From Escherichia phage vB_EcoS-12210III: a stretch of 44,219 nt of DNA. Shown here one piece after another: positions 1,998 to 29,661 of this stretch. Position 1 is the first letter of the stretch, and every line of letters starts with the position of its first letter. Position numbers and translations under genes: made by a program. The stretch is taken from the sequence record MK907227.1. One strand, written 5' to 3'. The notes beneath the pieces are model-generated. The model was not told the origin of the DNA, made no database searches, and worked only from the letters and a program-made list of their open reading frames with translations.

Positions 1998-2015
1998 CCA
2001 ATAAAGGAGTTCATT

Positions 2016-2198: not shown

Positions 2199-2242
2199 AA
2201 AGTGTTATACCCTTGTAAAGTTTCGTTTCTCTCGTTGTTTTT

Positions 2243-2266
2243 AGCCCTCGCTTGAGGGCTTTTTTT
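2243..2266 (+). terminator. Intrinsic terminator (stem AGCCCTC/GAGGGCT, T-run), followed by a TATAAT at 2281-2286 upstream of the small terminase gene
   Basis: GC-rich hairpin plus T6 read from sequence. Confidence 0.6.
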
Positions 2267-2309
2267 CGTCTCCAATATGGTATAATCTGACCTCAACAAA
2301 GGAGGATTT

Positions 2310-2816
2310 ATGAGTAAAGCAGCACTAAAGATGGGTGAGGGAAATTTCAAGGCGCTATACAACAAGAAGTATGGCGATATTGCCATGGTGGCAATCAACC
2401 GCAAGTACACACCAGAGGAGGTCTTCAATTTCGCCGTTCGATACTTCTCCTGGGCAGAGAGTGAGGCAATTAAGGCAATTGAGACAGCAGCTTTCCAGGG
2501 CGTTGTTAGTGAAAACCTTGTACACAAGCCGCGCGTGTTCACATTAACCGGGTTGGCGCTCTTCATGGGTGTCAACATCAATAGATTCGCACGCTGGCGT
2601 ACTGAGGCTGGGTACTCTGATGTGATGGAATTTATTGATAACGTAATCTACGAGCAGAAGTATCAGCTTGGCGTTGCGGGTATCATCAACTCCACAATCG
2701 TTGGTAAAGAACTTGGCATTGATAAGCCGCAGGAGATTAAGATTAGCAACAACTCCACAGCTAACGACGTTGATAGTATGAAGGAGGCGCTGGAGTCCGT
2801 GATTAGCAAGTTATAA
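2310..2816 (+). CDS. Terminase small subunit (putative)
   Basis: 168-aa ORF with strong RBS (AAAGGAGG) immediately upstream of the large terminase gene; assignment mainly by position and size. Confidence 0.55.
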   Translation: MSKAALKMGEGNFKALYNKKYGDIAMVAINRKYTPEEVFNFAVRYFSWAESEAIKAIETAAFQGVVSENLVHKPRVFTLTGLALFMGVNINRFARWRTEAGYSDVMEFIDNVIYEQKYQLGVAGIINSTIVGKELGIDKPQEIKISNNSTANDVDSMKEALESVISKL

Positions 2817-2834
2817 CAATAAGAGGGTATAACA

Positions 2835-4409: not shown

Positions 4410-4421
4410 GCGTGATAAACT

Positions 4422-4445
4422 AGCCCCGTGTATGGGGCTTTTTTA
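4422..4445 (+). terminator. Terminator-like hairpin (AGCCCC-GTGTAT-GGGGCT, T-run) between the terminase and portal genes
   Basis: Hairpin plus T6; overlaps the GTG-initiated extension of the portal ORF in the track. Confidence 0.5.
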
Positions 4446-4457
4446 TTGGAGAAAAAC

Positions 4458-5726
4458 ATGGTCAAGACAGACAGCTACGCCAATATCTTTCTAGGCGGCA
4501 GTGATGGTAGTGAGATTTACGGGAGCTTGCAGAGCCAAGCCCCTACAATTCTAGCTTCGCTTTATGCGGATAATGCGCTGGTGCGTCGAATAATCGACAC
4601 AATCCCGGAAACAGCATTAGCGGCAGGATTCCACATTGATGGAATTGATGATGAGCCTGCATTCTGGTCGCGCTGGGACTACCTAGAACTAACAAAGCAC
4701 ATCAATGAAGCCTGGTCATGGGCGAGATTGTTCGGCGGTTCTGCCATTGTCGCTATCGTTAAGGACAATAGGGCGCTAACAAGTCCGGTCAGAGAAGGCG
4801 CTGAACTTGAAACTGTTCGCGTTTACGACCGTACGCAGGTAAAAGTCCAGACTCGCGAGGAGAACCCACGCAACGCGCGTTTTGGTAAGCCACTAACCTA
4901 TCGCATCACAACTAATGAGAGCGATATGTTCTATGATGTGCACTACAGCCGCATTCACATCATTGACGGAGAGCGAATTCCTAACGTAATGCGTCGGCAG
5001 AATGATGGCTGGGGCCGCAGCGTTCTCTCCAGTGACATTCTTGACTCAATTAAGGATTACACCAACTGCGAACTACTTGCTACGCAGTTACTGAAGCGCA
5101 AGCAGCAGGCGGTGTGGAAAGCCAAGGGTCTTGCTGAATTGTGTGATGATAGCGAAGGATTTGGCGCTGCAAGATTGCGCCTAGCTCAGGTTGATAACAA
5201 TAGTGGCGTTGGTCAGGCAATTGGCATTGACGCAGAGTCTGAAGAATACAGTGTTCTGAACTCTGATATTGGCGGGATTGATGCGTTCCTGGATAAGAAG
5301 TTCGACAGAATCGTTGCGCTGAGCGGTATTCATGAGATTATCCTGAAGAACAAGAACGTTGGCGGCGTATCATCAAGTCAGAACACCGCATTGGAGACAT
5401 TCCATAAGCTAGTCGATCGCAAGCGTAACGCTGAACTACTGCCGATTCTCGGGTTCCTGATTCCGTTCATTTCAGACGAGCAAGAATGGTCAGTGGAGTT
5501 TAATCCCCTAGCGCAGGAATCAAGTAAGGATAAGGCCGAGATTCTTGAGAAGAACGTAAACAGCATCGCGACGCTAATTGCATCTGGCGCTATGGATATT
5601 GACGAAGCGAGAGATACATTGCGCGCAATCGCTCCAGAGGTTAAGATTAGTGACGGTTCAGTAGAGACAGAGGTGACGATTAGTGAAACCAGTAACGACC
5701 CGCTGGAAGTATCCGCAGATAATTGA
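4458..5726 (+). CDS. Portal protein
   Basis: About 422 aa directly after the large terminase; start set to ATG 4458 (RBS GGAG) rather than GTG 4428, which lies inside the hairpin. Confidence 0.75.
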   Translation: MVKTDSYANIFLGGSDGSEIYGSLQSQAPTILASLYADNALVRRIIDTIPETALAAGFHIDGIDDEPAFWSRWDYLELTKHINEAWSWARLFGGSAIVAIVKDNRALTSPVREGAELETVRVYDRTQVKVQTREENPRNARFGKPLTYRITTNESDMFYDVHYSRIHIIDGERIPNVMRRQNDGWGRSVLSSDILDSIKDYTNCELLATQLLKRKQQAVWKAKGLAELCDDSEGFGAARLRLAQVDNNSGVGQAIGIDAESEEYSVLNSDIGGIDAFLDKKFDRIVALSGIHEIILKNKNVGGVSSSQNTALETFHKLVDRKRNAELLPILGFLIPFISDEQEWSVEFNPLAQESSKDKAEILEKNVNSIATLIASGAMDIDEARDTLRAIAPEVKISDGSVETEVTISETSNDPLEVSADN

Positions 5727-6411
5727 GAGCAAGGTTAACCGCAATCTCAGCATTGCGGTAACTGAGTTAATTTCAGCAATGAAGGATTCAGCAACAAGGC
5801 TTAGAATTGATACTGCAGAGGAGCTAGGGGAGGAGGATGGATATCTTGAGGGGATAATTTCTGCATTGGTGGCGTCATTTATATCAACCATCCCGGCTAT
5901 AGGGGCGGCGATATACAGATACAATAGCTCGCAATTTCTTGTGCTTGCAATAAAGACCGGAGGAAGGTCCAATCCTAGCGTTCTGAACCTTGAGGTTAAC
6001 GGCATCAATGGTGGTGAGCCGTGGTATAATGATGACCTTAATCAGTGGATTTACACCACGGATAAGTCAGCCAGGAAGCTGCTAAATAACATCAAGGATG
6101 ATTTCTTACAGGCGGCTGCAACAATACAGAATGGTGACTACGTTAAGTTATCCGATAGGTACAAAACATACAGGAAGCGAACGGCAAATATTGCATCTGG
6201 AATTGTCTCTAGTCTCAACTCGACACTGATGAGGCGTAGGCTTGAGGATGCTGGTGTTAGCCGTTACATCTGGCATGGCATGTTAGATGATAGGGAGCGT
6301 CAGTCTCACATAGCAAGAGAAGGTCTTAGCTTTAAACTTGGTGGTAACGATATATTTCCAGGTCAAGAATACGGCTGTCGTTGCTGGTCGGTTCCAGATT
6401 GGGAATCATAA
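5683..6411 (+). CDS. Head morphogenesis protein (Mu F / SPP1 gp7-like minor head protein)
   Basis: 242 aa after the portal, overlapping its 3' end; C-terminal motif region (WHGMLDDRERQSH...CRCW) typical of MuF-like proteins; position. Confidence 0.6.
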   Translation: MKPVTTRWKYPQIIESKVNRNLSIAVTELISAMKDSATRLRIDTAEELGEEDGYLEGIISALVASFISTIPAIGAAIYRYNSSQFLVLAIKTGGRSNPSVLNLEVNGINGGEPWYNDDLNQWIYTTDKSARKLLNNIKDDFLQAAATIQNGDYVKLSDRYKTYRKRTANIASGIVSSLNSTLMRRRLEDAGVSRYIWHGMLDDRERQSHIAREGLSFKLGGNDIFPGQEYGCRCWSVPDWES

Positions 6412-6423
6412 TAGGAGAATTAA

Positions 6424-7512
6424 ATGAGCAAAATCCGCTATGACAGCGCAAAGTTCAAGGCGACAATCGACGAGAATGGATTTCTAGTCGACACACCAGT
6501 AGTCGCACGCCTAGGCGTGCAAGTCTACTACATGGAAGACGGTCGAACGGTTCGAGAGTTTCGCCCAGCCGAGGAAGTCTTCAAGGATGAATCCCTCGCT
6601 AGTTACCAGGGTAAGCCAATGACTCTTGATCATGTTTTCGTTAACTCAGAGAACGCTAAAGAGGTAGTGGTAGGTTCCGTTACTGGCAAAGCTGAGCCAT
6701 TGGGTAGCTCAGTGGTTGCTCCGATTGTTGTTTACGATAACACAGCCATTCAGGAAGCTATGGCAGGTAACGCCAAGGAGTTATCCGTTGGTTACTATGC
6801 AATTCTTGACGAAACCCCTGGCTGGGGCGACCCCATTACTGGCGAGTACGTCCTTAAATCTGATGGTGATCAATTCGATGCGCCAGAAGGATGGCAGGAG
6901 TTCGACGCAATTCAGCGTGACATTAAAGTGAACCATCTCGCAATGGTGTATAGAGGTCGCGCAGGTATTGCCAAATTGAATATGGACGGTGAGCAGGAAA
7001 ACCCGTATACTACTGACGTTGATATCAATAAAGAGGATAAACATGAAATGACAGTTAAAATTAAACTCGACGGCGCGCAGGAATTTGAGGTCGCCCCGGA
7101 AATCGCCTCTCACATCGAAGCACTGAACGCAAAGGCTGACACCGCAATCGCTGAGCGCGATGCACTGAAAGCCAAGGTAGATGCAATGCCTGCTGAAATC
7201 GAAGCTGCCGTGGCTAAAGCGAAAGCTGACGCTGATGCCCTTGCCGCCCTGGTTGCTGTTGCTGCTGAAGCTGGTGTTAAGGCTGACGGTATGGATGCTA
7301 AAGGCATTAAAGTTGCTTACGTTAAAGAAGTCTCCGGCCTTGATGTTTCCGAGAAGTCTGACGCATACATCGACGCAGCGTTCGACATTGCCAAAGAATC
7401 TGATAAAATGGCTGAAATACGTAAAGCGACTACCGCTTCCGACAAATATGACAGCGCCGATGAGCCTAAGAAATTAGACCCGCGTGCTCGTTTAGCTAAA
7501 ATTAAGAAATAA
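6424..7512 (+). CDS. Scaffolding / prohead core protein
   Basis: 362 aa; C-terminal Ala/Lys/Glu-rich predicted coiled coil (AEIEAAVAKAKADADALAAL); sits between the MuF-like and capsid genes. Confidence 0.55.
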   Translation: MSKIRYDSAKFKATIDENGFLVDTPVVARLGVQVYYMEDGRTVREFRPAEEVFKDESLASYQGKPMTLDHVFVNSENAKEVVVGSVTGKAEPLGSSVVAPIVVYDNTAIQEAMAGNAKELSVGYYAILDETPGWGDPITGEYVLKSDGDQFDAPEGWQEFDAIQRDIKVNHLAMVYRGRAGIAKLNMDGEQENPYTTDVDINKEDKHEMTVKIKLDGAQEFEVAPEIASHIEALNAKADTAIAERDALKAKVDAMPAEIEAAVAKAKADADALAALVAVAAEAGVKADGMDAKGIKVAYVKEVSGLDVSEKSDAYIDAAFDIAKESDKMAEIRKATTASDKYDSADEPKKLDPRARLAKIKK

Positions 7513-7524
7513 GGAGTTATAAAC

Positions 7525-8034
7525 ATGGCAATTCGTTCCGTAGCACTGGCTGGTATGATTTCTGATACTTCGCTCTATAACATCGACGGTGCTTGTGTGG
7601 TTGGCGGTGCAGCACCAATTCCGGTTGGCACTTTTGTTGGCGTTACATCCGCTCAGCCTGTAGATGGTCACAAGGTTGTTGGACTCCCAGCTGTAACTGG
7701 CTCGCCAGTTAAACCTTATGGTGTTGTTGTTAAATCTCATTACGAGACTCCAGATGGCACAGCTCGCGTAAATGAAGCGGTTAACGTAATGACTCATGGT
7801 CGAATCTGGGTTCGTACAAATCTAGCGGCTGCGCCAGCTTTTGGTGGCAAGGTTTTCGTAAACGCGAGTGGCGTTGTTGTTGCAGAAGCGGCAGGTTCTA
7901 CTTGGGAGACTGGTTTTACATTTGCTGGTGGTTACATCAAAAAAACGGGCACAGACCCGCAAGACCTAAGCGTTGATGGCGCACTAGTTGAAGTTCAGCT
8001 TATTCAATCCGCAGACTCAACTGTTGCAGCTTAA
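7525..8034 (+). CDS. Head-associated structural protein (possible decoration or minor capsid protein)
   Basis: 169 aa, Gly/Val/Thr-rich, strong RBS (AAGGAG); placement between scaffold and capsid genes. Function uncertain. Confidence 0.4.
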   Translation: MAIRSVALAGMISDTSLYNIDGACVVGGAAPIPVGTFVGVTSAQPVDGHKVVGLPAVTGSPVKPYGVVVKSHYETPDGTARVNEAVNVMTHGRIWVRTNLAAAPAFGGKVFVNASGVVVAEAAGSTWETGFTFAGGYIKKTGTDPQDLSVDGALVEVQLIQSADSTVAA

Positions 8035-8050
8035 TAATTAAGATATATAA

Positions 8051-8075
8051 AGCCTCCTTCGGGAGGTTTTTTTTA
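8051..8075 (+). terminator. Intrinsic terminator (CCTCC-TTCG-GGAGG, T8), followed by a sigma70-like promoter (TTGCGT 8081-8086, TATAAT 8103-8108) upstream of the capsid gene
   Basis: Read from sequence. Confidence 0.6.
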
Positions 8076-8146
8076 TGTCATTGCGTGGGCTAAAAACTCG
8101 TGTATAATGAATCCGTAAACACATAACTGAAAAGGAACAATAAAGA

Positions 8147-9091
8147 ATGGCCATTAAATTTGATGCAGAACAAGCAAAAATCACCGCTCACCTCGAGCAA
8201 ATGGGCGTAGAAAAAGCTGATGCCGCTGGTATCTGGACTGTTAGCCAGCTTACCGCTGCTCTGAACCGTGCTTACGAAAAAGAATACGCAGAAAACTCAG
8301 TTGTTAATATCTTCCCTGTAACAAATGAAATTCCTGGTCACGCGAAGTATTTCGAGTACCCAGAATTTGATGGTGCTGGCATTGCTCAGATTATCGCTGA
8401 TTACTCTGACGACTTGCCGCTGGTTGATGCGTTTATGAACGAGAAACAAGGCAAAGTGTTCCGTTTCGGTAACGCATTCCTGATTTCTATTGATGAAATT
8501 AAAGCTGGCGCCGCAACTGGTCAGTCCCTGTCAACTCGCAAGCAAGCCCTGGCTTTCGAAGCGCACGACAACCTGCTGGATAAACTGGTGTGGTCTGGTT
8601 CCGCCCCGCACGGCATCGTGAGCGTATTCGACCAGCCGAACATCAACAACGTTGTTGCAACTCCAAGTTGGAATATTCCGGACAACGCAATCGGTGATAT
8701 CACCGAGATGATTGACGCAGTTGAGACTTCAACACAGGGCCTCCATCATGTGACTGACATTCTGCTTCCGGCCTCTGCTCGTCGAATTATGCAGCAACTG
8801 GTTCCGCAGACAAATTTGAGCTACGGTGAACTGTTCACTCGTAACAACCCAGGTTTGACCATTCGTTTCTTGCAGTTCCTGGACAACTACGATGGTGCGA
8901 ATGGTAAGGCTGCTCTGGCGTTTGAGAAGAGTCCACTCAATATGTCTATCGAGATTCCGGAAGCTACCAACGTTCTTCCAGGACAACCTAAGGACTTGCA
9001 CTTTAAGTACCCTGTAACATCAAAAGCTACAGGTTTGATCGTTTATCGCCCTCTGACGATGGCCGTAATCAAAGGTATTACCTTAATCTAA
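8147..9091 (+). CDS. Major capsid protein
   Basis: 314 aa with its own promoter and terminators either side (high-expression unit) in the head module. Confidence 0.7.
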   Translation: MAIKFDAEQAKITAHLEQMGVEKADAAGIWTVSQLTAALNRAYEKEYAENSVVNIFPVTNEIPGHAKYFEYPEFDGAGIAQIIADYSDDLPLVDAFMNEKQGKVFRFGNAFLISIDEIKAGAATGQSLSTRKQALAFEAHDNLLDKLVWSGSAPHGIVSVFDQPNINNVVATPSWNIPDNAIGDITEMIDAVETSTQGLHHVTDILLPASARRIMQQLVPQTNLSYGELFTRNNPGLTIRFLQFLDNYDGANGKAALAFEKSPLNMSIEIPEATNVLPGQPKDLHFKYPVTSKATGLIVYRPLTMAVIKGITLI

Positions 9092-9097
9092 TAAATG

Positions 9098-9120
9098 GCC
9101 CTCTTCGGAGGGCTTTTTTT
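9098..9120 (+). terminator. Intrinsic terminator (GCCCTC-TTCG-GAGGGC, T7) after the capsid gene
   Basis: Read from sequence. Confidence 0.65.
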
Positions 9121-9184
9121 ACGTCTGTACCAAATGGATTTGTTGGGTTATAATCACTCAATCAGATAAACAAAGGAGACAAAA

Positions 9185-9430
9185 ATGATTCGTTTAGAAC
9201 ACACTGGCGCTTGCCTTATCGTTTACAAGGGTGAGAAATATTTGCCTGGTGACACTTTTGAGGTTGATGTAATTTGCGACGGACTCAAGCGTTTAATCGC
9301 AGAGGGTAAACTCACTATTGAAGGTGACGCTAAAGCAACCAAGCAAATCGCGCAAGAAATTGTTAGCAAGAAAAAGCGCAAAGAACCGAAAACTATCTCC
9401 GAAGCTGAGACTGGCAACGAGTACAAATAA
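9185..9430 (+). CDS. Hypothetical head/neck protein (81 aa)
   Basis: ORF with RBS AAAGGAG. Confidence 0.5.
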   Translation: MIRLEHTGACLIVYKGEKYLPGDTFEVDVICDGLKRLIAEGKLTIEGDAKATKQIAQEIVSKKKRKEPKTISEAETGNEYK

Positions 9431-9471
9431 CAAACAGGGCGCTTCGGCGTCCTTTATTGTATGGAGCTAAT

Positions 9472-9873
9472 ATGAATGATGCAATTTTGGCGTTTATGCG
9501 CTCGCTTGTTCCGGCGCTCAAAGCGGTGGATGACGAATCAATTAATGTATGGATTGATTTGGCACGCCTATACGTATGCGAAAGTAAATTTGGAGCAGAC
9601 AAAGATAAGGCAGTAGGACTTTACGCGCTACACCTGATGATTGCTGATGGCGCGTTTAAGGGTGAGAATGAAGGGCTGGAAACATACAGCCGTAGGATGG
9701 CAAGTTATGCACTGAGCGGTGAATTCTCTATCACTTATGATACCCAATCAGCAGCATCTGGCGACTTATCATCTTCTCAATTCGGCCGTATGTACAAAGC
9801 ACTGCTCCGCAAGAAAGGCGGCGGCTTCGGTTTAATTACTTCCGCTGGTGGCGGTGGGTGTGGTTGCCGATGA
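9472..9873 (+). CDS. Head-tail connector / head completion protein (putative)
   Basis: Position in the neck gene series; start set to ATG 9472 (RBS GGAG). Confidence 0.45.
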   Translation: MNDAILAFMRSLVPALKAVDDESINVWIDLARLYVCESKFGADKDKAVGLYALHLMIADGAFKGENEGLETYSRRMASYALSGEFSITYDTQSAASGDLSSSQFGRMYKALLRKKGGGFGLITSAGGGGCGCR

Positions 9874-10241
9874 ACTACAGTGAAATTGAATCAATCACTC
9901 GCTCTGGCATTAACTTCTTTAGTGATGCCAATGGCGTTTATGAAATGAGTACTGGTGATGGATATGTTGAAATTGCTAACGGCGTTGAAGTTGAAGTTCC
10001 TTCGCAAACATTTCAGCTAAAAGGCTTGGTGCGAGAAATCAAGACGCGCGATATAGATGGTGAGTTTATCCAGTTTGGCGATAAGCGCGGAATATTCACG
10101 GCGCAGGTTGAAATTAAGCAGGGTTATCAGATTAAAGTCAATGGCGACACTTTTGTTGTTGTTGACCCGAGACCTGTTAAACCAACTGGTACAGTTGTTG
10201 GCTACAGGCCAATTCTTCGTAGGGTGGCTACTTATGGCTAG
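9870..10241 (+). CDS. Head-tail joining protein (putative)
   Basis: ATGA overlap with the upstream gene; position. Confidence 0.45.
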   Translation: MNYSEIESITRSGINFFSDANGVYEMSTGDGYVEIANGVEVEVPSQTFQLKGLVREIKTRDIDGEFIQFGDKRGIFTAQVEIKQGYQIKVNGDTFVVVDPRPVKPTGTVVGYRPILRRVATYG

Positions 10242-10683
10242 TTTTATACCGAAGGCCAATGGCGGGGTTATTGAATTTACCCGCTCCATTTCTGAATGGA
10301 TAGATAAGGTTGAATCTGGAGTTGATGAGGTTGTTGCAGGAACCATTATCAAGACAGCTAATGGCCTGGTAGATCAGTCACCAGTTGACACCGGTAGATT
10401 TAAAGCCAACTGGCAAATAACAGCAAACTCCCCGGCTCAGCAGTCAGTAATTGACTATGATAAACTTGGAACAGAGACCAAAAGAGCACTCGCAAGACAA
10501 GCAAGGGCGGTAGCCAGAGCAAAGGGAACAAAGGTCATTTACATAACAAACAGGCTTGATTACTCAATTCACCTTGAGTATGGCGGTTCGGGTCAGGCGC
10601 CAAACGGCATTATTAGGATTGTTCAGATGCGGCTTGGTCGATACTTCCAGGAAGCAGTAGAGGAGGCTAAACGTGCACTATGA
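10234..10683 (+). CDS. Neck / tail completion protein (HK97 gp10-like, putative)
   Basis: About 149 aa; start ATG 10234 overlapping the upstream stop; position. Confidence 0.45.
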   Translation: MASFIPKANGGVIEFTRSISEWIDKVESGVDEVVAGTIIKTANGLVDQSPVDTGRFKANWQITANSPAQQSVIDYDKLGTETKRALARQARAVARAKGTKVIYITNRLDYSIHLEYGGSGQAPNGIIRIVQMRLGRYFQEAVEEAKRAL

Positions 10684-11074
10684 ATTGTCTATAGCTGCCA
10701 GGAAATATGTTAATGATTTGCTGGTGAAAAACTTCCCAGTCAGATATCCAGTATCTTGGGAAAACGTTGCTTTCACTCCTCCAGCAGATGGTTCTATCTG
10801 GCTAAAGTATGACTACATCGAGGTTGACACCGTAACATACGGGCTGAGCAGGAAGTGCAAATACTATGTAGGGATGGTGCAGGTTTCTGTCTTCTTCAGT
10901 CCAGGTACTGGCATTGATAAGCCTAGACAAATCGCTAATCAATTGGCAGAATCTATCGTTGATGGTACAATGCTTGACACCGGGACCATTTACGAGTCTG
11001 GAGTTGTTAACCCGGTTATCAAATCCAAGTCTGGGTGGTTTATCCCGGTTCATTTTTATGTTCGTCTAGACTAA
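10673..11074 (+). CDS. Tail terminator / tail completion protein (putative)
   Basis: 133 aa, GTG start after RBS GAGGAGG; immediately upstream of the major tail protein gene. Confidence 0.45.
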   Translation: MHYELSIAARKYVNDLLVKNFPVRYPVSWENVAFTPPADGSIWLKYDYIEVDTVTYGLSRKCKYYVGMVQVSVFFSPGTGIDKPRQIANQLAESIVDGTMLDTGTIYESGVVNPVIKSKSGWFIPVHFYVRLD

Positions 11075-11089
11075 CAAAAGGAAAAATAC

Positions 11090-11746
11090 ATGGCTCATTT
11101 ATCAAATGGCACGCAGGTCTTCGTAGAAGGAACTCGCGGAACTCCAATTAACGTAACTAAAATCTCTAACGCAACTAAACCAGTTTTAACCGTATCTAGC
11201 GCATCTGGCCTGGCTAAGGGTGACTACCTTCTGTTTACCGCCTCCAGCTCAACCCTACTTAGCGACAAACAGGTGCGAGTAACTGAAGTTTCTGGCACTT
11301 CGGTAACAGTTGAAGGTATTGATACCTCCGACGCCACTAAGTTCCCTGCTGGCTTAACTGGTGAGGTTGTTAAGATTAATTCATGGATCGAAGTCCCGTG
11401 TGTTCAGGACGTATCTACTGACGGCGGCGAACAGCAGTTTGTTAACTTCCAGTGCCTTTCTGACGAACGCGAACAGCAGATTCCGACTTATAAATCTGCG
11501 GTAACAAACACCTTCACCTTTGCTCACGAGTACACCAACCCGGTCTATCCGGTTCTGCGTAAATACGATGAGTCTGGCCAGGTTGTTGCGATTCGTCTGT
11601 TCGTACCTCGCGCTCAGGAAATGCGCTTGCAGTCCGGCACTATCTCTTTCAATGACATCCCTGCCATTGGTGTCAACGAAATCGAAACGGTATCCATGGC
11701 GGTATCCATTCGTGGTCGACTGTCCTCCGTGGCAGCTAAAGTTTAA
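11090..11746 (+). CDS. Major tail (tube) protein
   Basis: 218 aa; strong RBS; terminator downstream; precedes the chaperone and tape-measure genes. Confidence 0.7.
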   Translation: MAHLSNGTQVFVEGTRGTPINVTKISNATKPVLTVSSASGLAKGDYLLFTASSSTLLSDKQVRVTEVSGTSVTVEGIDTSDATKFPAGLTGEVVKINSWIEVPCVQDVSTDGGEQQFVNFQCLSDEREQQIPTYKSAVTNTFTFAHEYTNPVYPVLRKYDESGQVVAIRLFVPRAQEMRLQSGTISFNDIPAIGVNEIETVSMAVSIRGRLSSVAAKV

Positions 11747-11754
11747 AACACAAA

Positions 11755-11774
11755 CCCTCTTCGGAGGGTTTTTT
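11755..11774 (+). terminator. Intrinsic terminator (CCCTC-TTCG-GAGGG, T6)
   Basis: Read from sequence. Confidence 0.6.
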
Positions 11775-11779
11775 ATTGC

Positions 11780-11823
11780 ATGGCACTTTTTGCTAAAGAG
11801 TTAATCCAATCTTCCTGTATAGT
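11780..11823 (+). promoter_or_regulatory. Conserved phage promoter unit inside the tail module: palindrome variant ATGGCACTTTTTGCTAA (11780-11796), 22-nt spacer, TATAGT (11818-11823), leader CATCGAAACGA (11829-11839)
   Basis: Same geometry as the early-region copies. Confidence 0.5.
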
Positions 11824-11856
11824 TAACTCATCGAAACGAAATGAGAGATTAATTAA

Positions 11857-12105
11857 ATGAATAACGTTAAAAACATCATCAAACTTACTGCGGTTCTGGT
11901 TGCTTTTTATGCGGTAGTTAAGATTGTTAACCCAACTGGCGAGACTTATGCCAATGCAAAGGCAAGCGAATATAACTTTGAGTTTGCTAAGGCCGAGCGA
12001 GTTTGCAAGGGTTTGGTAGGTGGTAAAGTTGACCAAATCATGAAATATGGTAGCGAGATTTGCAAGGATACCGCTGCTAAGATTGCAAAAGAAAACACTA
12101 AGTAA
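11857..12105 (+). CDS. Small exported/membrane protein (82 aa) inserted in the tail module (moron-like)
   Basis: Own promoter unit; N-terminal hydrophobic segment (IIKLTAVLVAFYAVVKIV); two Cys; interrupts the major tail to chaperone gene order. Confidence 0.5.
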   Translation: MNNVKNIIKLTAVLVAFYAVVKIVNPTGETYANAKASEYNFEFAKAERVCKGLVGGKVDQIMKYGSEICKDTAAKIAKENTK

Positions 12106-12143
12106 TAGAATACACACTCACAAACAATAAGAGGATTAACAAA

Positions 12144-12458
12144 ATGGCAAAGTTCAAACTTTCACTGGCAGCACTCCCTGACTTTAAGTTGCCTGTAAAA
12201 TTTAAGCTGGCTAACGACCAGGATGTAGAGGTTATCTTTACAGTCAAACATAAGAAAACATCTGAGTTGCAGGAATTACTTAGAAAGGAAGACTTGAGCA
12301 CCAAAGAGCTTATTATGGCAATTGCCTCTGACTGGGACTTGGAAGAGGAATACAACGAGGATAACGTTAATGAGTTCTGTGACCTATTCCCTGCTTCAAC
12401 CGTTGCGCTAACTACCGCCTATATGCAAGCACTGGCTGGTCAGCGTGTAAAAAACTAA
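12144..12458 (+). CDS. Tail assembly chaperone (lambda G-like)
   Basis: 104 aa directly upstream of the tape-measure gene; slippery heptamer A_AAA_AAC at 12449-12455 just before its stop. Confidence 0.7.
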   Translation: MAKFKLSLAALPDFKLPVKFKLANDQDVEVIFTVKHKKTSELQELLRKEDLSTKELIMAIASDWDLEEEYNEDNVNEFCDLFPASTVALTTAYMQALAGQRVKN

Positions 12459-12778
12459 AACGAGCGGTGTATCTACAGTACCAGTCAGAACCAACTGATG
12501 CCGAACTGGAAGCTATTGGGATGCGCCGCTCTGATTACGAAGACGAAGAGCCTGAAGTTTTGCACTTCGACGATAACATGATGAAGGCGTGGGACATTTA
12601 TTGTTCAATGGCTACACAGTGGCGAGTCGGAGCTAATGGAGTAACAGGTCTTGATTACAACGTGCTAAATTTCCTCTTTAGAGTGTATAATGTTTCTGAA
12701 GAAGAATTGGTGCTCAGTGATTTACGCATCCTTGAAGCTAAAGCTCTTGAGATGATGGACAACCTGAGAAAAAAATAA
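12144..12778 (+). CDS. Tail assembly chaperone frameshift fusion (lambda GT-like): 12144..12455 joined by -1 frameshift at 12449-12455 to the -1 frame running to 12778
   Basis: The downstream ORF (track 12467..12778) has no ATG and is in the -1 frame relative to the G-like ORF; heptamer A AAA AAC lies in the correct register (codons GTA AAA AAC TAA). Confidence 0.6.
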
Positions 12779-12796
12779 CCCGCTTCGGCGGGTTTT
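12779..12796 (+). terminator. Hairpin (CCCGC-TTCG-GCGGG) with short T-run; weak terminator or RNA stability element
   Basis: Read from sequence. Confidence 0.4.
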
Positions 12797-12813
12797 CTAT
12801 TATGGAGGCTTAG

Positions 12814-15789
12814 ATGGCAACAAATGAATTAGCCGGAATCACACTAGCCGTAGACGTATCGCAAGTAGACAGGGGTACGCAGTCCCTACAAAAGTTCAGG
12901 CAGGCAAACCAGCAGGCTGCTTCCGGTATTAGTGAGTTCGTCAACGCTGAGCAGGTTGCTAAAAACCAGGCTAGAGACACGGCTCGCGCACTTGCTGAAC
13001 AGCAAGCATCTTTGGCTAAATTGCAAACGGCTATTGACCCAACTGCGGCAAAGTTCCGTAAGCTGCAAGAGGCAGCGGTAGGTCTTGATAAGGCATTCGC
13101 GGCTGGCGTAGTTCCTGATGAGGAGTTTTTCCGCTTAGGTGAGGCGCTTGAAACGCAGAACGCAAAACTTGCTCGTTCACGTGCGGCACTAACTGAAGAG
13201 GGTAGAGCGGCAGCGCAAGCTGCAAAGGATAAGGCAAAGGCAAAGGCTGAAGCGGATAGATTCATTGCATCACTTGAGCGTCAGGCTCAAGCGGCAACAT
13301 TGACGCGTGAGGAGTACTTAAAATTACAGGCTGCTCAGCTTGGCGTAAGTTCTCAGGCAGCGCCTATTATTGACAGAATCGCCGATGCATCACAGAAGGC
13401 AAACACCCAGCTAATTGCTCAGAGCAAGGCCTTTCAACGCTCTGGCTTAAGCGCAGGCCAATACAAGGCTGCAATCTCTCAATTGCCAGCGCAGATTACA
13501 GATATTGGGACATCACTTGCTGGCGGCATTCCGATTTGGCTTATTGCAATTCAGCAAGGCGGACAAATTAAGGATGCATTTGGAGGTATTGGTAACACCT
13601 TTAGATTCGCGCTTGCAGCCTTAAATCCATTCAATGTTGCTGTTGGGGTTTTGGGTGGCGCGCTTGTTGCTCTAGGTATCGGTGCTGCCCAGGCAGAGAG
13701 TGAATTCAGAGCATTAAATTCTGCCATTGCGTTCTCAAACAACTCCACAATCGCATCAATCTCGCAGGTTAGAGAGTTGGTTAGCTCTGTTTCTGATGCT
13801 ACTGGTGCAACCAGAGGACTTGTGACTAGCATCGCAACAAGCCTTATTGAGCAAGGGAACCTTACGCTGACGCAGATTGACAAGATTACTAAATCTACCG
13901 CCAGATGGGCGCAGTTGACAGGTAAGGATGCAAAGGAAATTACTGGTTACTATAACCAGATTGCGAGCGACCCAATTCAAGGACTTGCTGATTTAGACAA
14001 GAGGTTTAACTTCCTTACTCAGGGGCAGTTAACAACAATTGAAAGATTGAGAGAGACTAGGGGTGAGGTTGAAGCCGTAACTGCTGCTATTGATATATTT
14101 AGCAAATCACAGGAAGCAAACCTTAACGATATTGCAGCCCAGCTTACTCCTCTTGAATTGGCCTGGAATGACTTCAGGAAGTACATATCTGATGTATGGG
14201 ATGCGATTAGTCGCAGAACGGTTGGGGCGCTAAACCTGTTTGTTGATGTAATAGCCGGGACAATTGAACAGATTAAGGTCTTCATTAACCAAGGTGACGC
14301 GCTGATTGGTGAGTTTGTAATTAGTGCAACTCAGGCATTGCAGAATATCCCAGGCCTTGATGGTGTCGGTGATGATGTAATCAAGAGTCAGCAGAAGATT
14401 ATCGATGCCGCCAAGAAGCAAAACCTTGAGCTAGAGAAGTCTATCAGGGAGAGAGATGCCAGAATCAGAGAGGGAGAACTTGGTTACGTTACACGCAGGG
14501 AAAATCAGAATTCCAATGAGCAATCAGGTACTGATGAGGAGTTTGCAAAAAGGAAGAAGGCGCTTCAGGATGAACTTGATGCGATCAAGAAGAGCAGGAA
14601 AGAAGAAAATGGTAGGGTTAAAGAGCAAAGAGACCTTACAATTGGTTACGAATCTGGCGTGTTGGCGCTCCAGGCTCAGCTCAAGGTTCTTCAGGAAAAC
14701 AGGGATATCGGCGCGGTAATAAGCAATGAGCGCAAGCAGTATCTTCAGGAGGTTGCCAAATTCCAGATTCTTGAGCAGAGGCAACTTGATGGCTCAATTA
14801 CCAAAGAGCAAGCAAGACTTCTCATTGAAAAGGATAAAGTTCTTGAGCTGGCAAGACAGAAGGCTGAGCTAGGTGATCAGATTGCTTTGCAGGAGCGAGC
14901 TAATAAGTTGGCTGAAGATAACCGCAAGAAGATTCTTCAGATTAACAATGAGGCAAGCAATATTAATTTGGGTACTGGACTATCATCTCGTGAACTGCAA
15001 AGAGCCAAAGAGATTCAGGCTCTTCAGTCCAATCAGGTCAATGCTGGTGGCTCTCTTGATGATGTTGATTTTCAGCAATTGCTGGAAGCAAGAAAGGAAT
15101 ACTACAAGCAAGAGGATAATCTTAGGTCAGACTGGCAATCCGGTGTAATATCCACTCTCGCTGACTTGACAGATAAGTACACTGACTACAACCAGATTGC
15201 TAAGGACTTAACCGTTGCGGCATTTGACGGGATAACAGAGCAAATTACAAACCTTGTAACCACTGGTGAGACCAATTTTAGGGAGTTCACAGCAAGCATC
15301 CTCAAAATGATTGCCAAGATTGCAACTCAGCTTCTTATTGTCAAGGCTATTGAGTCCAGTTTAAGTAGCTTCGGCGGTACTGGCGGCGCCTTTGGTTCAA
15401 TTGCTTCTGGCCTGGGTTTTGCTGGTGGCGGCTATACTGGCAATGGTGGTAAGTATCAGCCAGCAGGAACGGTGCACCGCGGTGAGTTTGTATTCACAAA
15501 AGAAGCGACTAGCAGAATTGGTGTTAAGAACCTTTACGCACTAATGAAGGGTTACGCAAATGGCGGTGTTGTTGGTGGCCCTTCTGGTTATGCAAATGGT
15601 GGTTTGGTTTCTGGTGGAGCAGATGTTAATGTTAGTGGTATCACTGTTAACGTAAACTCGGGTGTAGGTAGCGACCCAGAACAAGCTAAGGCACTGCAAA
15701 GCGGAGTCAAGGCTATCGTAGCCGAAGAGATTGCTCAGTCCTTCCAGCAGGGTGGTAGGGCGTATGCCTACCTTCGTGGATTCAACTAA
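12814..15789 (+). CDS. Tail tape measure protein
   Basis: 991 aa, long Ala/Gln/Glu-rich predicted helical region, C-terminal Gly-rich repeats (GYANGGVVGG / GYANGGLVSGG); follows the chaperone pair. Confidence 0.9.
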   Translation: MATNELAGITLAVDVSQVDRGTQSLQKFRQANQQAASGISEFVNAEQVAKNQARDTARALAEQQASLAKLQTAIDPTAAKFRKLQEAAVGLDKAFAAGVVPDEEFFRLGEALETQNAKLARSRAALTEEGRAAAQAAKDKAKAKAEADRFIASLERQAQAATLTREEYLKLQAAQLGVSSQAAPIIDRIADASQKANTQLIAQSKAFQRSGLSAGQYKAAISQLPAQITDIGTSLAGGIPIWLIAIQQGGQIKDAFGGIGNTFRFALAALNPFNVAVGVLGGALVALGIGAAQAESEFRALNSAIAFSNNSTIASISQVRELVSSVSDATGATRGLVTSIATSLIEQGNLTLTQIDKITKSTARWAQLTGKDAKEITGYYNQIASDPIQGLADLDKRFNFLTQGQLTTIERLRETRGEVEAVTAAIDIFSKSQEANLNDIAAQLTPLELAWNDFRKYISDVWDAISRRTVGALNLFVDVIAGTIEQIKVFINQGDALIGEFVISATQALQNIPGLDGVGDDVIKSQQKIIDAAKKQNLELEKSIRERDARIREGELGYVTRRENQNSNEQSGTDEEFAKRKKALQDELDAIKKSRKEENGRVKEQRDLTIGYESGVLALQAQLKVLQENRDIGAVISNERKQYLQEVAKFQILEQRQLDGSITKEQARLLIEKDKVLELARQKAELGDQIALQERANKLAEDNRKKILQINNEASNINLGTGLSSRELQRAKEIQALQSNQVNAGGSLDDVDFQQLLEARKEYYKQEDNLRSDWQSGVISTLADLTDKYTDYNQIAKDLTVAAFDGITEQITNLVTTGETNFREFTASILKMIAKIATQLLIVKAIESSLSSFGGTGGAFGSIASGLGFAGGGYTGNGGKYQPAGTVHRGEFVFTKEATSRIGVKNLYALMKGYANGGVVGGPSGYANGGLVSGGADVNVSGITVNVNSGVGSDPEQAKALQSGVKAIVAEEIAQSFQQGGRAYAYLRGFN

Positions 15790-15819
15790 TTAACGGGGCT
15801 TCGGCCCCTAAGGATTTTT

Positions 15820-16170
15820 ATGGCTATTGATAAATTTACCTGGTGCACTCAAATCCAAAATGGAGGCGGCTCGTTCTCTAACACGAACAATGTGCGAATA
15901 GTTAGCTTCGGCAATGGTTACACCCAAAGGGGTACTGGTGGATACAGGAGCAACACCAGAAGCTACCAGATGACATATACCAACAAGGACTGGCGAGATG
16001 TCATGGATTTCTGCTTCAACCACATCATTACCCCGTTCTTCTGGACTACGCCGCAGGGCGACACATCCATGTTTGTTATTCAGCAGGATAGTATTAGCGT
16101 CACACCAGTCAGTAAGGAAGTTCAGACTGTAAGCATGCAATTCGTAGAAGTATTTAGTTCAATGCGTTAA
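15820..16170 (+). CDS. Minor tail protein (lambda M-like, distal tail)
   Basis: 116 aa directly after the tape measure, in the conserved M-L-K-I-J order. Confidence 0.55.
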   Translation: MAIDKFTWCTQIQNGGGSFSNTNNVRIVSFGNGYTQRGTGGYRSNTRSYQMTYTNKDWRDVMDFCFNHIITPFFWTTPQGDTSMFVIQQDSISVTPVSKEVQTVSMQFVEVFSSMR

Positions 16171-16175
16171 ACTAA

Positions 16176-16196
16176 GCCCCTATGCGGGGCTTTTTT
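16176..16196 (+). terminator. Terminator-like hairpin (GCCCC-TATGC-GGGGC, T6) inside the tail operon
   Basis: Read from sequence. Confidence 0.5.
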
Positions 16197-16209
16197 ATTG
16201 GAGAAATAT

Positions 16210-16965
16210 ATGCTAAGTCCAAAGTTTGAAAATCAGTTGCAAAGCCTTTTCCCTGGCGAGATTGTGACACTAATCCAGGTTGACGGAACCTCCTTCGGAA
16301 GTCTCGTTTACAACTTCCACAATGAGAATATTTCATACACGCCAGAAGAGATCATGCTGGCCCAGATGAATGGCGAGCCACTACCAGAGAAAACCATCAC
16401 CTTCCGCGGTGAAGAGTACGGACCTAGACCTTTCGGTATCTCGGGTATCAATATGACTTCTGACGGCAAGGCTAACAAGGTTACGTTAACGGTATCAAAC
16501 GTGGACCAGCGCATTAGCGCACTTATCCGCACATACAACGGATTGGTTAAGGCTAAGGTTACTATCTGGATTACTACGCGAGACAACATCAATGAAGACG
16601 GAAGCATTGCTGATGGGGACTATCGCAGATTCGTTTACTTCATTGAGCGACCTAAGCAGGTTGATTATAAAACCGCATCATTTGAGCTAAGTAGCCCGAT
16701 GGATATGGATGGTATTTATATCCCCGCAAGACTTGTTCAGTCTGTTTGCTACTGGGCTTCTAGGGGTTGGTATCGTAGCGGTAATGGGTGTACTTATGAT
16801 GGAAATAGATACTTTAATAAGGATGATAAGCCAGTTGATGACCCGTCTTTAGACTTCTGTGCAGGAACTGTTAACAGTTGCAAACTTAGATTTGGTGAGA
16901 ATAATCAGTTAGATTTCGGCGGCTGCGCTGCAGCAAGCCTTCAAGCTAAAGCCAACCAGAGTTAA
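16210..16965 (+). CDS. Minor tail protein (lambda L-like)
   Basis: Start set to ATG 16210 (RBS GGAG); four C-terminal cysteines (CYWAS...C...C...C) as in L-like proteins; position. Confidence 0.65.
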   Translation: MLSPKFENQLQSLFPGEIVTLIQVDGTSFGSLVYNFHNENISYTPEEIMLAQMNGEPLPEKTITFRGEEYGPRPFGISGINMTSDGKANKVTLTVSNVDQRISALIRTYNGLVKAKVTIWITTRDNINEDGSIADGDYRRFVYFIERPKQVDYKTASFELSSPMDMDGIYIPARLVQSVCYWASRGWYRSGNGCTYDGNRYFNKDDKPVDDPSLDFCAGTVNSCKLRFGENNQLDFGGCAAASLQAKANQS

Positions 16966-16975
16966 GGAGAAATAA

Positions 16976-17734
16976 ATGTTAACACCAAAAGTTAAACTTG
17001 AAATCTTTCAGCACGCAAAAGAGGATTACCCGCATGAATGCTGCGGAGTTGTCACACAAAAGGGTCGCGCTCAGAAGTATCACAGAATCACCAACGCCAG
17101 CAAAGACCCAGAGAATGAATTCCTCCTTGATTCAAATGAGTATGCTAGTGTCGCATTCAACCTAGCGGATAATGAGTCCATTGTTTACGTAGTTCACTCC
17201 CACACGGGCGATGGAGCAACAACAAGACCAAGCCCAGCGGATATCTGTAGCTGCAATGAGTGCGAGATTCCGTATGTTATTGTAAGCATCCCGGAGGGAG
17301 ATATGCGTATTCTTGAGCCATCAACGATGCCACTGATTGGTCGCCCGTGGGGGCTTGGTAGCTTTGATTGCTGGGAGTTGGTAATGGCATTCCATAAGAA
17401 ATACGGCGTCAAACTGAATGACTACCGCGTTAATTACCCGTGGTGGGAGAAGCGGTACAATGAAAATATCTATGATGACAACTGGATTAAGGAAGGATTT
17501 GAGCTGGTAAAAACTTCAGATATTCCGATTGGTTCCATGATTATGATGCAGGTGCAAAGTGAGGTGACAAACCACGCCGGAATCTACATTGGCAATAACA
17601 GATTCATTCATCACCTTTATGGTAAAATGAGTTCCGTTGATATCTACTCCGATTACTGGAGGGAGCGCACTGTGCGAATTGTTCGCCACAAGGATTTACC
17701 AGAGGATGTAATTTATGACTCAGAAGCTGATTGA
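16976..17734 (+). CDS. Tail assembly protein (lambda K-like: JAB/MPN metalloprotease plus NlpC/P60-like domain)
   Basis: N-terminal E...HSH...D motif (HECCG..., VVHSHTGD) of the JAMM type; C-terminal Cys/His region; position between the L-like and I-like genes. Confidence 0.7.
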   Translation: MLTPKVKLEIFQHAKEDYPHECCGVVTQKGRAQKYHRITNASKDPENEFLLDSNEYASVAFNLADNESIVYVVHSHTGDGATTRPSPADICSCNECEIPYVIVSIPEGDMRILEPSTMPLIGRPWGLGSFDCWELVMAFHKKYGVKLNDYRVNYPWWEKRYNENIYDDNWIKEGFELVKTSDIPIGSMIMMQVQSEVTNHAGIYIGNNRFIHHLYGKMSSVDIYSDYWRERTVRIVRHKDLPEDVIYDSEAD

Positions 17735-18287
17735 CATTAAGTTGGGCCTGTCACTAGGCCGCAGGTTTGGAAAGATTCACCAGATGGCGGTGAGTAGCGT
17801 GCCTGAAGCTATGCGGGCACTTTGCTCACAGATCCCTGCGTTCAAGGAGTTCATGAATAGCCATGTAGGTCAAAACACCAGATATGCTATTTTTGTGGAT
17901 GGTAAAAATGTGAACGAGCATCGAATAGCTGATTTTAGTGCCGTTCAGGAGATACGCATCTTACCAATCCCTCAAGGCCGTAAGTCTGGCGGGCTTTTTC
18001 AGACTATTTTAGGCGCCGCTCTTATCACGGTTGGCATCTTTACCGGGCAGATTTATCTTGTTGGCGCTGGTGTTTCTCTGGCTGCTGGCGGTATTGCCCA
18101 GCTACTTTCACCTCAAGCAACTGGATTAAAGACGCAGGACAACCAAACAAGCAACCGCGCCTCTTACGCATTTGGCTCAGCTGTAAACACTGTAGCCGCT
18201 GGTTATCCTGTTTGCCTACCTTATGGTTATCGAACGGTTGGCGGTTCGGTATTTAGTGCTGGCAGTTATTCCGAAGACATTGCTTAA
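17715..18287 (+). CDS. Tail assembly protein (lambda I-like)
   Basis: 190 aa with hydrophobic C-terminal half; overlaps the K-like gene end; position before the J-like gene. Confidence 0.55.
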   Translation: MTQKLIDIKLGLSLGRRFGKIHQMAVSSVPEAMRALCSQIPAFKEFMNSHVGQNTRYAIFVDGKNVNEHRIADFSAVQEIRILPIPQGRKSGGLFQTILGAALITVGIFTGQIYLVGAGVSLAAGGIAQLLSPQATGLKTQDNQTSNRASYAFGSAVNTVAAGYPVCLPYGYRTVGGSVFSAGSYSEDIA

Positions 18288-18295
18288 ACATCATA

Positions 18296-18316
18296 CCCGC
18301 CTAGTGCGGGTTTTTT
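18296..18316 (+). terminator. Terminator-like hairpin (CCCGC-CTAGT-GCGGG, T6) before the J-like gene
   Basis: Read from sequence. Confidence 0.5.
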
Positions 18317-18367
18317 ATTTAGTGTAGAATGGCACAAATGATCAAAACAAACATGAGGCTTTGTGAT

Positions 18368-29638: not shown

Positions 29639-29661
29639 TGTGTAAAGTCTCCATTTGTAAA

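Follow-up and report, generated by a model that had tools for sequence, protein, structure and literature searches.

A promoter-equipped insertion between the tail-tube and chaperone genes of Braunvirinae phages looks like an exchange slot for envelope-directed accessory genes

In a T1-like coliphage of the Braunvirinae, the major tail (tube) protein gene and the tail assembly chaperone genes are separated by an insertion that carries a putative promoter unit and a gene for an 82-aa, probably exported protein. Comparison with relatives suggests a swappable slot for cell-envelope accessory factors, which does not look like a part of the virion. What is new here, as judged from the aligned genomes, is a conserved, promoter-equipped site in which the cargo is replaced by unrelated, predicted envelope proteins. 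We assign a probability of roughly 0.6 to the reading of the 82-aa gene as an accessory, independently promoted, envelope-targeted cargo gene.

The window, by which we mean the whole 44,219-nucleotide stretch analysed (Escherichia phage vB_EcoS-12210III, MK907227.1), belongs to the Drexlerviridae, subfamily Braunvirinae, genus Veterinaerplatzvirus, and is of the vB_EcoS-12210I type. Over 10600-13000 it matches ~40 records, those of Escherichia phage vB_EcoS-12210I and sister isolates, at 100% identity. Drexlerviridae are virulent phages, and no integrase was found among the window's annotated genes. In the RefSeq record NC_049813, the 82-aa ORF is H1N77_gp16, a "hypothetical protein" placed between the gene at 11090-11746, annotated as "major tail protein", and two genes labelled "tape measure". 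Profile matches indicate that the latter two are really a tail assembly chaperone (Phage_TAC_4) and its DUF1799 partner. The features of the locus are as follows.

11090..11746, + strand: gene for the major tail (tube) protein, flanking the slot on its left side (PF08813 Phage_tail_3, E = 6.6e-67; phrog_584)
11752..11777, + strand: intrinsic terminator that ends the tail-tube transcript, at the slot's left border (stem 11752-11771, then a T-run)
11779..12105, + strand: Braunvirinae-specific insertion of ~327 nt (promoter unit and cargo gene), with borders placed by comparison with loci lacking it
11780..11797, + strand: Drexlerviridae direct-repeat element ATGGCACTTTTTGCTAAA (consensus ATAGCACnnnTTGnTAAA), 19 copies in the window
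11818..11823, + strand: -10-like hexamer TATAGT, 22 nt past TTGCTA, with rigid spacing and kept in relatives
11829..11856, + strand: leader with CATCGAAACGA box, GAGAGA ribosome-binding site and mini-ORF, unstructured by prediction (sequence and conservation)
11857..12105, + strand: cargo gene, 82 aa (H1N77_gp16, phrog_22925), supported by dN/dS and conservation
12083..12111, + strand: predicted sigma-70-type promoter of the chaperone genes, TTGCAA-17-TAGAAT, with the -35 inside the 3′ end of the cargo gene
12144..12778, + strand: tail assembly chaperone genes, right flank of the slot (Phage_TAC_4 at 12144-12458; DUF1799 ORF at 12467-12778)

A sequence-only reading of this DNA had described a terminator behind the major tail gene, a palindrome variant, a 22-nt spacer leading to TATAGT, a leader, and an 82-aa ORF with an N-terminal hydrophobic segment and two cysteines. 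Each of these elements was recovered in the present analysis, at the positions given above and below.

Borders and distribution of the insertion

The left border is formed by a hairpin (11752-11771) with an 8-bp stem and a UUCG loop (-11.5 kcal/mol, z = -4.8), followed directly by the T-run. This tail-tube terminator is invariant in 8 relatives, and a terminator occupies the equivalent position in other subfamilies. On the right flank, the DUF1799 ORF is reached via a -1 shift at A AAA AAC (12449-12455).

To place the locus among the Drexlerviridae, 80 IMG/VR loci found by a chaperone profile were surveyed. The tail-tube and chaperone genes are 69-133 nt apart in 72 of them, with no gene between. 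A forward repeat together with a cargo gene occurs in 7 loci and in no others; all 7 are Braunvirinae, and their gap measures 397-515 nt. The one remaining locus holds an unrelated 445-aa GDSL-like ORF between the two genes. The cargo is likewise absent from all five annotated genomes compared, namely Sadiya (Rogunavirinae), a Klebsiella K50 phage (unclassified), pSf-1 and slyngel (Tempevirinae), and KP36 (Webervirus), where the order is tube gene, terminator, -10-type promoter and chaperone gene, with a gap of 70-100 nt. The T1 gene numbering used in the Rtp and KP36 records (gp42, 41, 40, 39) also places the tube gene directly before the chaperone gene. In Tempevirinae-like phages without cargo, the repeat is present in reversed orientation ahead of the chaperone gene. 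Among 1139 phage records with a related tail-tube gene, the 82-aa protein was found in 81.

The -10 element and leader before the window's chaperone gene match those lying right behind the terminator in uninterrupted loci, and the insertion therefore corresponds to ~11779-12105. Judged by these borders, 11779-12105 is an indel relative to other Drexlerviridae. The sequence-only reading had proposed a comparison of synteny for exactly this question, and had named conservation of the ORF in the structural gene order of all relatives, together with presence in virions, as the outcome that would point to a structural protein instead of a moron; the gene proved to be confined to Braunvirinae. The insertion has a G+C content of 37.9%, against ~46% for the structural block, and the ORF falls in the lowest 13% of equal-size windows, which makes it only mildly low.

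The 82-aa protein and the exchange of cargo

The cargo gene has 38 homologous clusters down to 55% identity, every one of 82 codons (two are truncated). Its pairwise dN/dS ranges from 0.06 to 0.32, compared with 0.01-0.13 for the adjoining chaperone gene. The 82-aa ORF is a real gene under purifying selection, which is more relaxed than that on its flanks. An antisense ORF at 11773-12117 (114 aa) was rejected because stop codons interrupt it in relatives.

By inspection and a crude scan, residues 1-32 form a putative Sec signal peptide or signal anchor. The N-terminus, MNNVKNIIK, carries lysines at K5 and K9 and leads into a hydrophobic core of 15 residues (10-24; Kyte-Doolittle ~2.4), behind which stand an invariant NP and, at residues 30-33, the conserved motif (A/T/S)-x-A|N. 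The stretch behind the core is long, at 8 residues, which makes an uncleaved signal anchor about as likely as a cleaved signal peptide. The Sec pathway probably either inserts the protein into the inner membrane or carries it across. Residues 33-82 are lysine-rich and predicted to be helical, and they contain two cysteines, Cys50 and Cys69 in alignment numbering, that are invariant across the 38 homologues. An AlphaFold2 model with low confidence (pLDDT 65) consists of three helices, and in a simple hairpin the two cysteines would not face each other. The 82-aa protein is not a lipoprotein by lipobox, its first cysteine being at position 50, and it matched neither PF24052 nor LPAM_1.

Searches for relatives returned little beyond the family itself. 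Among PHROGs, the protein matches only phrog_22925, a family without assigned function; Pfam, NCBIfam, PADLOC and PDB sequence profiles gave no match, and no significant match to known defence or exclusion families was obtained in PADLOC, Pfam, NCBIfam or the functional PHROGs. A search of 5.8 billion proteins yielded 39 clusters, all close relatives, and an exhaustive profile search of 1.84 billion representative proteins found the protein's own family and one spurious match on the hydrophobic segment. Foldseek comparison with viral and PDB structures returned nothing below E = 0.5, just generic helical bundles.

Across the Braunvirinae, the left border of the slot (terminator, repeat, -10, leader and ribosome-binding site) is conserved, whereas the gene behind it varies. 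The terminator, repeat, -10 and leader of phage Rtp are 87-91% identical to those of phages with the 82-aa gene. Rtp and CEB_EC3a resemble each other closely in the tube gene (84%), the terminator-promoter segment (91%) and the chaperone gene (86%), whereas their cargoes share 43% nucleotide identity, which is the chance level. A 128-aa cargo starting MKAIIAIMATLLLAGC is present in Rtp (as rtp34, which the searchable literature does not mention), AugustePiccard, RobRod40 and MM01, and phage TR1 carries a related protein of 126 aa (31% identity, E = 4e-14). Rtp34, Bas01_0018 and the TR1 cargo are lipoproteins by lipobox (LLAGC or LTGC). In Rao1, CY1, TR2 and TR3, an extra ORF for a 46-aa membrane peptide with two hydrophobic helices lies between the leader and a diverged 82-aa gene; in the Rao1 clade, the N-terminus of the 82-aa protein contains more Ala and Gly. 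Exchange is also visible within the 82-aa family: the flanking proteins of ACG-M12 are 88%, 95% and 98% identical to those of the window, whereas its cargo is 44% identical and belongs to the other clade. The alternative slot cargoes are, by their predicted features, all envelope-directed proteins. The records with a tube protein at least 80% identical sum to 81 + 5 + 1 = 87, consistent with a filled slot in every Braunvirinae genome. A common origin of the 82-aa protein and the slot lipoprotein, considered because both have a similar D-x-I-M-K..S-E-I-C at the second cysteine (BLASTP E = 0.025), was rejected, as profile comparison gave a homology probability of 0.15%.

The repeat-type promoter unit and its likely transcripts

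The element ATGGCACTTTTTGCTAAA at the head of the insertion is an imperfect palindrome, TGGCA-N5-TGCTA (also written TAGCA-N5-TGCTA), with G for A at position 3. Allowing at most 3 mismatches, the 18-nt motif ATAGCACTWWTTGCTAAA matches 19 times in the window, against 0.27 matches expected by chance, and nearly all of the copies point toward a downstream gene. The 22-nt spacing to a -10 hexamer (TAnnnT or CAnnnT) was picked automatically for 13 of the 19 copies and by eye for about 15. The CATCGAAACGA box (11829-11839) begins five nucleotides past TATAGT and is one of five exact copies in the window; one further copy has a single mismatch, and every copy sits behind a repeat motif. The ribosome-binding site GAGAGA (11843-11848) stands at a conserved spacing from the cargo ATG at 11857. 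The leader, which has no predicted structure (11829-11856), also contains a 3-codon mini-ORF, ATGAGAGATTAA (11842-11853). None of this repeat/-10/leader arrangement is due to chance. An RNA element was rejected; the sole Rfam match, to rsmX, was sub-threshold, scoring 18 bits where 56 are required.

From the distance to the -10 element, transcription probably starts at about A11830, and the palindrome centre would then fall near -42, a typical site of class II activators. With 22 nt from TTGCTA to the -10 element, the unit departs from a canonical sigma-70 promoter; the repeat may instead serve as an activator site or operator, or act in an UP-like manner. A re-annotation of phage TLS described a 21-nt direct repeat, aaATAGCACnnnTTGnTAAAA, at 21 sites that are co-oriented with transcription and lie ~76 nt upstream of start codons, and reported the repeat in T1, Rtp and Rogue1 too; its authors left the role open between a stoperator, an enhancer-binding site and an UP-like element (PMC11447400). 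The copy at 11780 matches the TLS repeat at 17 of 18 positions, is in forward orientation, and lies 77 nt from the cargo ATG. The two repeats are thus alike in consensus, orientation, distance to the start codon (~76 versus 77 nt) and abundance (~20 copies per genome). What is added here is the rigid 22-nt spacing to the -10 element, the placement of the palindrome centre near -42, and the CATCGAAACGA leader in a subset of copies. Unlike the TLS repeat in general, the copy in the slot between the tail-tube and chaperone genes is Braunvirinae-specific. In the searchable literature we found neither expression data on any T1-like phage nor RNA-seq or transcription-start mapping of Drexlerviridae.

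The copy at 11780 is the sole one within the structural block (~1700 to 21700). Elsewhere in the window, the repeat unit heads only non-structural genes and the receptor-binding locus. It stands before genes for replication and recombination, before many small genes, before the block with the holin, endolysin and spanin genes, and before an opposite-strand gene pair downstream of the J-like gene. The unit thus goes with genes of the non-structural and host-interaction kinds. As lysis and receptor-binding genes are headed by it as well, "early", the term used in the sequence-only reading, is only a label for the slot promoter. The sequence-only reading had further held that the structural operon is otherwise promoter-free, and this part needs correction: good -10 elements of sigma-70 type (TATAAT), with or without a -35 or TG, stand behind terminators before terS (~2287), the major head gene (~8104) and the next gene (~9140), and TTGCAA-17-TAGAAT precedes the chaperone gene, at a place where the CEB_EC3a record annotates a promoter. 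The proposed T1 "transcripton" layout, as far as it is quoted in PMC11447400, fits multiple promoters in the structural block. As a single copy within a late operon that otherwise appears to use ordinary promoters, the slot offers a clean test case for the Drexlerviridae repeat.

No hairpin or T-run was found behind the cargo ORF in 12095-12150 (-1 kcal/mol), so the cassette lacks its own terminator, a point absent from the sequence-only reading; the first one downstream lies behind the chaperone genes, at 12777-12794. A transcript from the slot promoter would consequently continue through the chaperone genes to 12777-12794. In Rtp and AugustePiccard, the cargo stop codon and the chaperone start are 17-18 nt apart with no -10 between them, which leaves the slot promoter as the only recognisable chaperone promoter in these phages. 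The slot promoter may serve tail assembly as much as it serves the cargo. An explanation built on this point is that the slot promoter mainly drives the chaperone genes, as a booster or temporal switch, and that the ORF is carried as a passenger, or that its product helps tape-measure or tail assembly from the membrane rather than acting as a host-interaction factor. The missing terminator, the dependence of the Rtp and AugustePiccard chaperone genes on the slot promoter, and the reversed repeat at the cargo-free junction of Tempevirinae-like phages, which ties the element to the junction, all favour it. However, most Drexlerviridae use a plain -10-type chaperone promoter without a repeat or an extra gene, and the window itself retains such a promoter behind the cargo. 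The cargo is moreover under purifying selection, and the alternative cargoes all appear envelope-targeted, including lipoproteins that must exit the cytoplasm. Phage tails assemble in the cytoplasm. On balance we regard this explanation as unlikely.

Proposed function, comparable systems and other explanations

For the preferred reading, that of an envelope-targeted accessory gene, we propose the following mechanism. The segment 11779-12105 would be a lineage-specific accessory cassette in a recombination-prone slot that reaches from the tail-tube terminator to the chaperone promoter. The cassette would supply a repeat-type promoter, composed of the ATAGCACnnnTTGnTAAA-type repeat, the 22-nt spacer, the -10 element and the CATCGAAACGA leader, and the cargo would probably be transcribed independently of tail-tube read-through, on a transcript that carries on into the chaperone genes in the absence of a terminator behind the cargo. 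The helical domain of ~50 residues would face the periplasm, the compartment where cysteines get oxidised, and its two invariant cysteines would be oxidisable there. The 82-aa protein would then be an accessory host-interaction factor whose target is the infected cell's envelope.

A more specific role is tentative: the likeliest, though less probable than not, is that the protein provides a second layer of superinfection exclusion, or protects the envelope or guards against loss of progeny, at a step other than receptor block. The argument comes from context, namely the putative own promoter, the fast-evolving and exchangeable envelope gene, its predicted compartment, and a promoter unit in common with a verified type of exclusion gene, and from analogy with Llp, Cor and Rtp45, T4 Imm and Sp, HK97 gp15 and TP-J34 Ltp. 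The first gene of the pair downstream of the J-like gene encodes a protein 84% identical to Rtp45, an exclusion lipoprotein for which cryo-EM shows binding to LptDE (bioRxiv 10.1101/2025.07.07.663478). In Rtp, the repeat and an identical leader stand ahead of rtp45, as they do before the window's Rtp45-like gene. By this similarity, a receptor-level block is already provided by the window's Rtp45-like lipoprotein. Receptor-specific exclusion by the 82-aa protein was rejected on two grounds. The Rtp45-like gene fills that role, and phages shown or predicted to use LptD carry either cargo: Bas01 has the slot lipoprotein and Bas02 the 82-aa gene, and both use LptD (shown or predicted). Besides phages with demonstrated or predicted LptD use, others too carry the 82-aa gene.

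The broadest combination of these ideas would make the slot a dedicated exchange site for envelope effectors and the 82-aa protein a new periplasmic class that blocks the tape-measure-dependent passage of a second genome, complementing the Rtp45-type block. The repeat would be the site, near -42, of a dimeric phage regulator (for example the Cro-like protein encoded at 30728-31201) that sets the temporal class of a gene, and a reversed site would repress late genes. Taken as a whole, this combination is rather improbable.

The sequence-only reading had called the gene moron-like, which we find broadly right. What stands is the insertion, the promoter unit of non-structural type, the exported-looking product and the exchange of envelope cargo: the gene is present where other Drexlerviridae have none (72 of the 80 loci and the five annotated genomes), and a complete, conserved repeat/-10/leader unit provides a putative promoter of its own. 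What does not fit is the lack of an own terminator and the virulent lifestyle, since prophage expression, the usual moron rationale, is inapplicable to a virulent phage. The cassette is not a classical, self-contained moron. Morons of lambdoid phages, reportedly treated by Juhala and Hendrix in 2000 and by Cumby et al. in 2012, are said to include HK97 gp15, a superinfection-exclusion moron in the tail gene cluster. Like these, the window's cargo lies between conserved tail genes in some relatives only, adjoins the chaperone and tape-measure genes, has a putative promoter of its own and encodes a small predicted membrane or envelope protein. Unlike them, it belongs to a virulent phage, lacks a terminator, and is headed by a family-specific repeat unit rather than a host-type promoter. 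No sequence similarity between the 82-aa protein and known moron products was found in the libraries searched (PHROGs, Pfam, NCBIfam and PADLOC).

Two further groups of proteins invite comparison. With Rtp45 (LptDE) and with T5 Llp and T1 Cor (FhuA), the 82-aa protein has in common that it is a small, apparently envelope-targeted protein of a virulent siphophage; the window's Rtp45-like gene uses the promoter-leader unit of the slot, and the Rtp34 and TR1 slot cargoes are likewise lipoproteins. In contrast to Rtp45, Llp and Cor, the 82-aa protein has no lipobox and no PF24052 match, and its gene belongs to the tail module rather than to the receptor-binding locus. T4 Spackle (Sp) and Imm and TP-J34 Ltp are small, helical, exported proteins of an infecting or resident phage that block a post-adsorption step, either the tail lysozyme or tape-measure-mediated genome entry. 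The 82-aa protein resembles them only in size, predicted compartment and helical content, and profile and Foldseek searches gave no sequence or fold match to any of the three. T1-like phages are common laboratory and fermentation contaminants, and they are also candidate therapeutic phages. The exclusion lipoproteins with which they block receptors (Cor, Rtp45) are now structurally understood, whereas their other accessory genes are not. The slot offers a compact family of small, putatively exported proteins and lipoprotein alternatives that can be screened for exclusion or envelope phenotypes, and a natural cargo-swap site with conserved flanks would be useful for engineering T1-like phages. 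Should the 82-aa protein have no phenotype, the locus would remain a documented gene-exchange hot spot.

As an antiholin-like regulator of lysis timing, the 82-aa protein could act on holin, endolysin or spanin through a membrane-tethered or released periplasmic domain. T4 RI has an N-terminal hydrophobic helix and a small helical periplasmic domain, and the 82-aa protein is similar in size and layout; the shared promoter-leader unit also heads the block holding the lysis genes, and the Ala/Gly-richer N-terminus in the Rao1 clade points the same way. Nevertheless, the cargo gene is neither in nor near the lysis cassette, relatives swap in a lipoprotein of different fold, and no homology to any lysis protein emerged from PHROGs, Pfam, NCBIfam, PDB or the 1.84 billion proteins. 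We know of no description of lysis inhibition in T1-like phages, and we consider a lysis role quite improbable. Alternatively, the 82-aa protein might be a minor virion component or an ejection protein that travels in the tail and leaves together with the tape measure, helping to open a channel across the host envelope. The position of its gene, within the tail module and beside those for the chaperone and tape measure, would suit this, and some ejection proteins likewise have a single hydrophobic helix. Against this, nearly all Drexlerviridae whose tails are homologous lack the gene, it is not conserved with the structural gene order, its promoter unit is of non-structural type, and it is replaced by lipobox lipoproteins, which are unable to be cytoplasmic assembly partners. 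The virion proteome consulted for presence in the particle covers only phages without the 82-aa gene and so is uninformative here. On balance, a virion role appears very doubtful.

The envelope-targeted accessory gene thus remains our preferred reading. That the ORF arose by chance within an extended leader of the chaperone operon, with no functional gene at all, would agree with the small size, the lack of homologues beyond the lineage and the lack of a known domain, but it can be dismissed in view of the fixed 82-codon length over 38 clusters to 55% identity, a dN/dS well below 1, the invariant cysteines and the ribosome-binding site at conserved spacing.

Sites and geometry of the repeat

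The family-wide repeat ATAGCACnnnTTGnTAAA was found at 19 sites in the window, most of the copies being separated by a rigid 22-nt spacing from a -10-like hexamer.

Plus-strand copies: 297, 1129, 11780, 26044, 29662, 31214, 33710, 36042, 42990, 43496 and 43949
Minus-strand copies: 22995-23012(-), 24179(-), 24469(-), 30705(-), 37664(-), 37822(-), 40404(-) and 41050(-)

The palindrome within the repeat, TAGCA-N5-TGCTA, is centred near -42 relative to the inferred transcription start, a geometry more in keeping with a class II activator site than with a -35 element. As a putative binder of the repeat, we propose a candidate with a Cro-like helix-turn-helix, the ORF at 30728-31201(-), whose match to P22_Cro (26 bits) lies under the Pfam cut-off.

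The repeat also occurs in reverse orientation. In Tempevirinae-like phages without a cargo gene (in the window, the 82-aa gene), a reverse copy lies in the chaperone-gene leader, as in pSf-1 (L005) and slyngel (L007), at about 2330-2350, and it was found in this leader in 20 of the 80 IMG/VR loci (e.g., L042, L045, L051 and L056). In the window, the copy at 29662-29679(+) runs opposite to the lateral tail fibre gene, which lies on the minus strand (27269-29668), and overlaps its start. Reverse copies upstream of late structural genes might serve as operators, the "stoperator" role suggested in the paper on phage TLS (PMC11447400).

Genes and leaders behind the repeat

Three of the genes concerned are as follows.

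26100-26768(+): ORF of about 220 aa downstream of a repeat-type promoter
22703-22933(-): lipoprotein (PF24052, lipobox AVGC) with 84% identity to phage Rtp's LptDE-binding exclusion protein, Rtp45
21768-22712(-): DUF6453 protein, next after the lipoprotein gene

The first ORF is unannotated in the RefSeq record because it spans the ends of the linear record; it probably encodes the single-strand annealing protein, as judged from its synteny with rtp48 (ERF domain) of Rtp. The DUF6453 protein is likely the receptor-binding protein, given its position adjoining the J-like gene. On the strength of this gene pair, LptD is the predicted terminal receptor of the phage. In both the window and Rtp, the pair sits behind the repeat ATAGCACnnnTTGnTAAA and the CATCGAAACGA leader.

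Three repeat-driven leaders contain tiny upstream ORFs (11842-11853, about 36104-36112 and about 350-370), which start at a conserved GAAACGA(A/G)ATGAG and encode M-R-D-stop, M-S-stop and M-R-L-Q-stop. These may reflect chance, a ribosome-loading feature or merely part of the ribosome-binding region.

The tube/chaperone junction

A slippery heptamer, A AAA AAC, lies at 12449-12455, immediately 5′ of the chaperone stop codon, and a -1 shift there brings reading into the DUF1799 ORF (12467-12778). The predicted shift is of the standard G/GT type, the programmed frameshift known from tail assembly chaperone genes, and phrog_17368 (213 aa) spans both halves.

Other ORFs also occupy the slot between the tail-tube and chaperone genes.

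L065 825-2162: 445-aa ORF without the repeat, in a metagenomic Drexlerviridae relative (IMGVR_UViG_3300048920_000084)
Rao1 (L009) about 1020-1160 and CY1 (L015) about 2280-2420: 46-aa ORF (MILIGMLTAFFYYATGLTFWVSLGAAIG..., phrog_16572)

The 445-aa ORF, which has a weak GDSL-lipase-like match under the cut-off (19.5 bits), shows the junction being used for insertion a second time, independently. The 46-aa product has two hydrophobic helices, and in the Christensenvirus group its ORF is inserted after the slot's leader and ahead of the 82-aa gene. TR1 belongs to the same genus and carries a lipoprotein instead.
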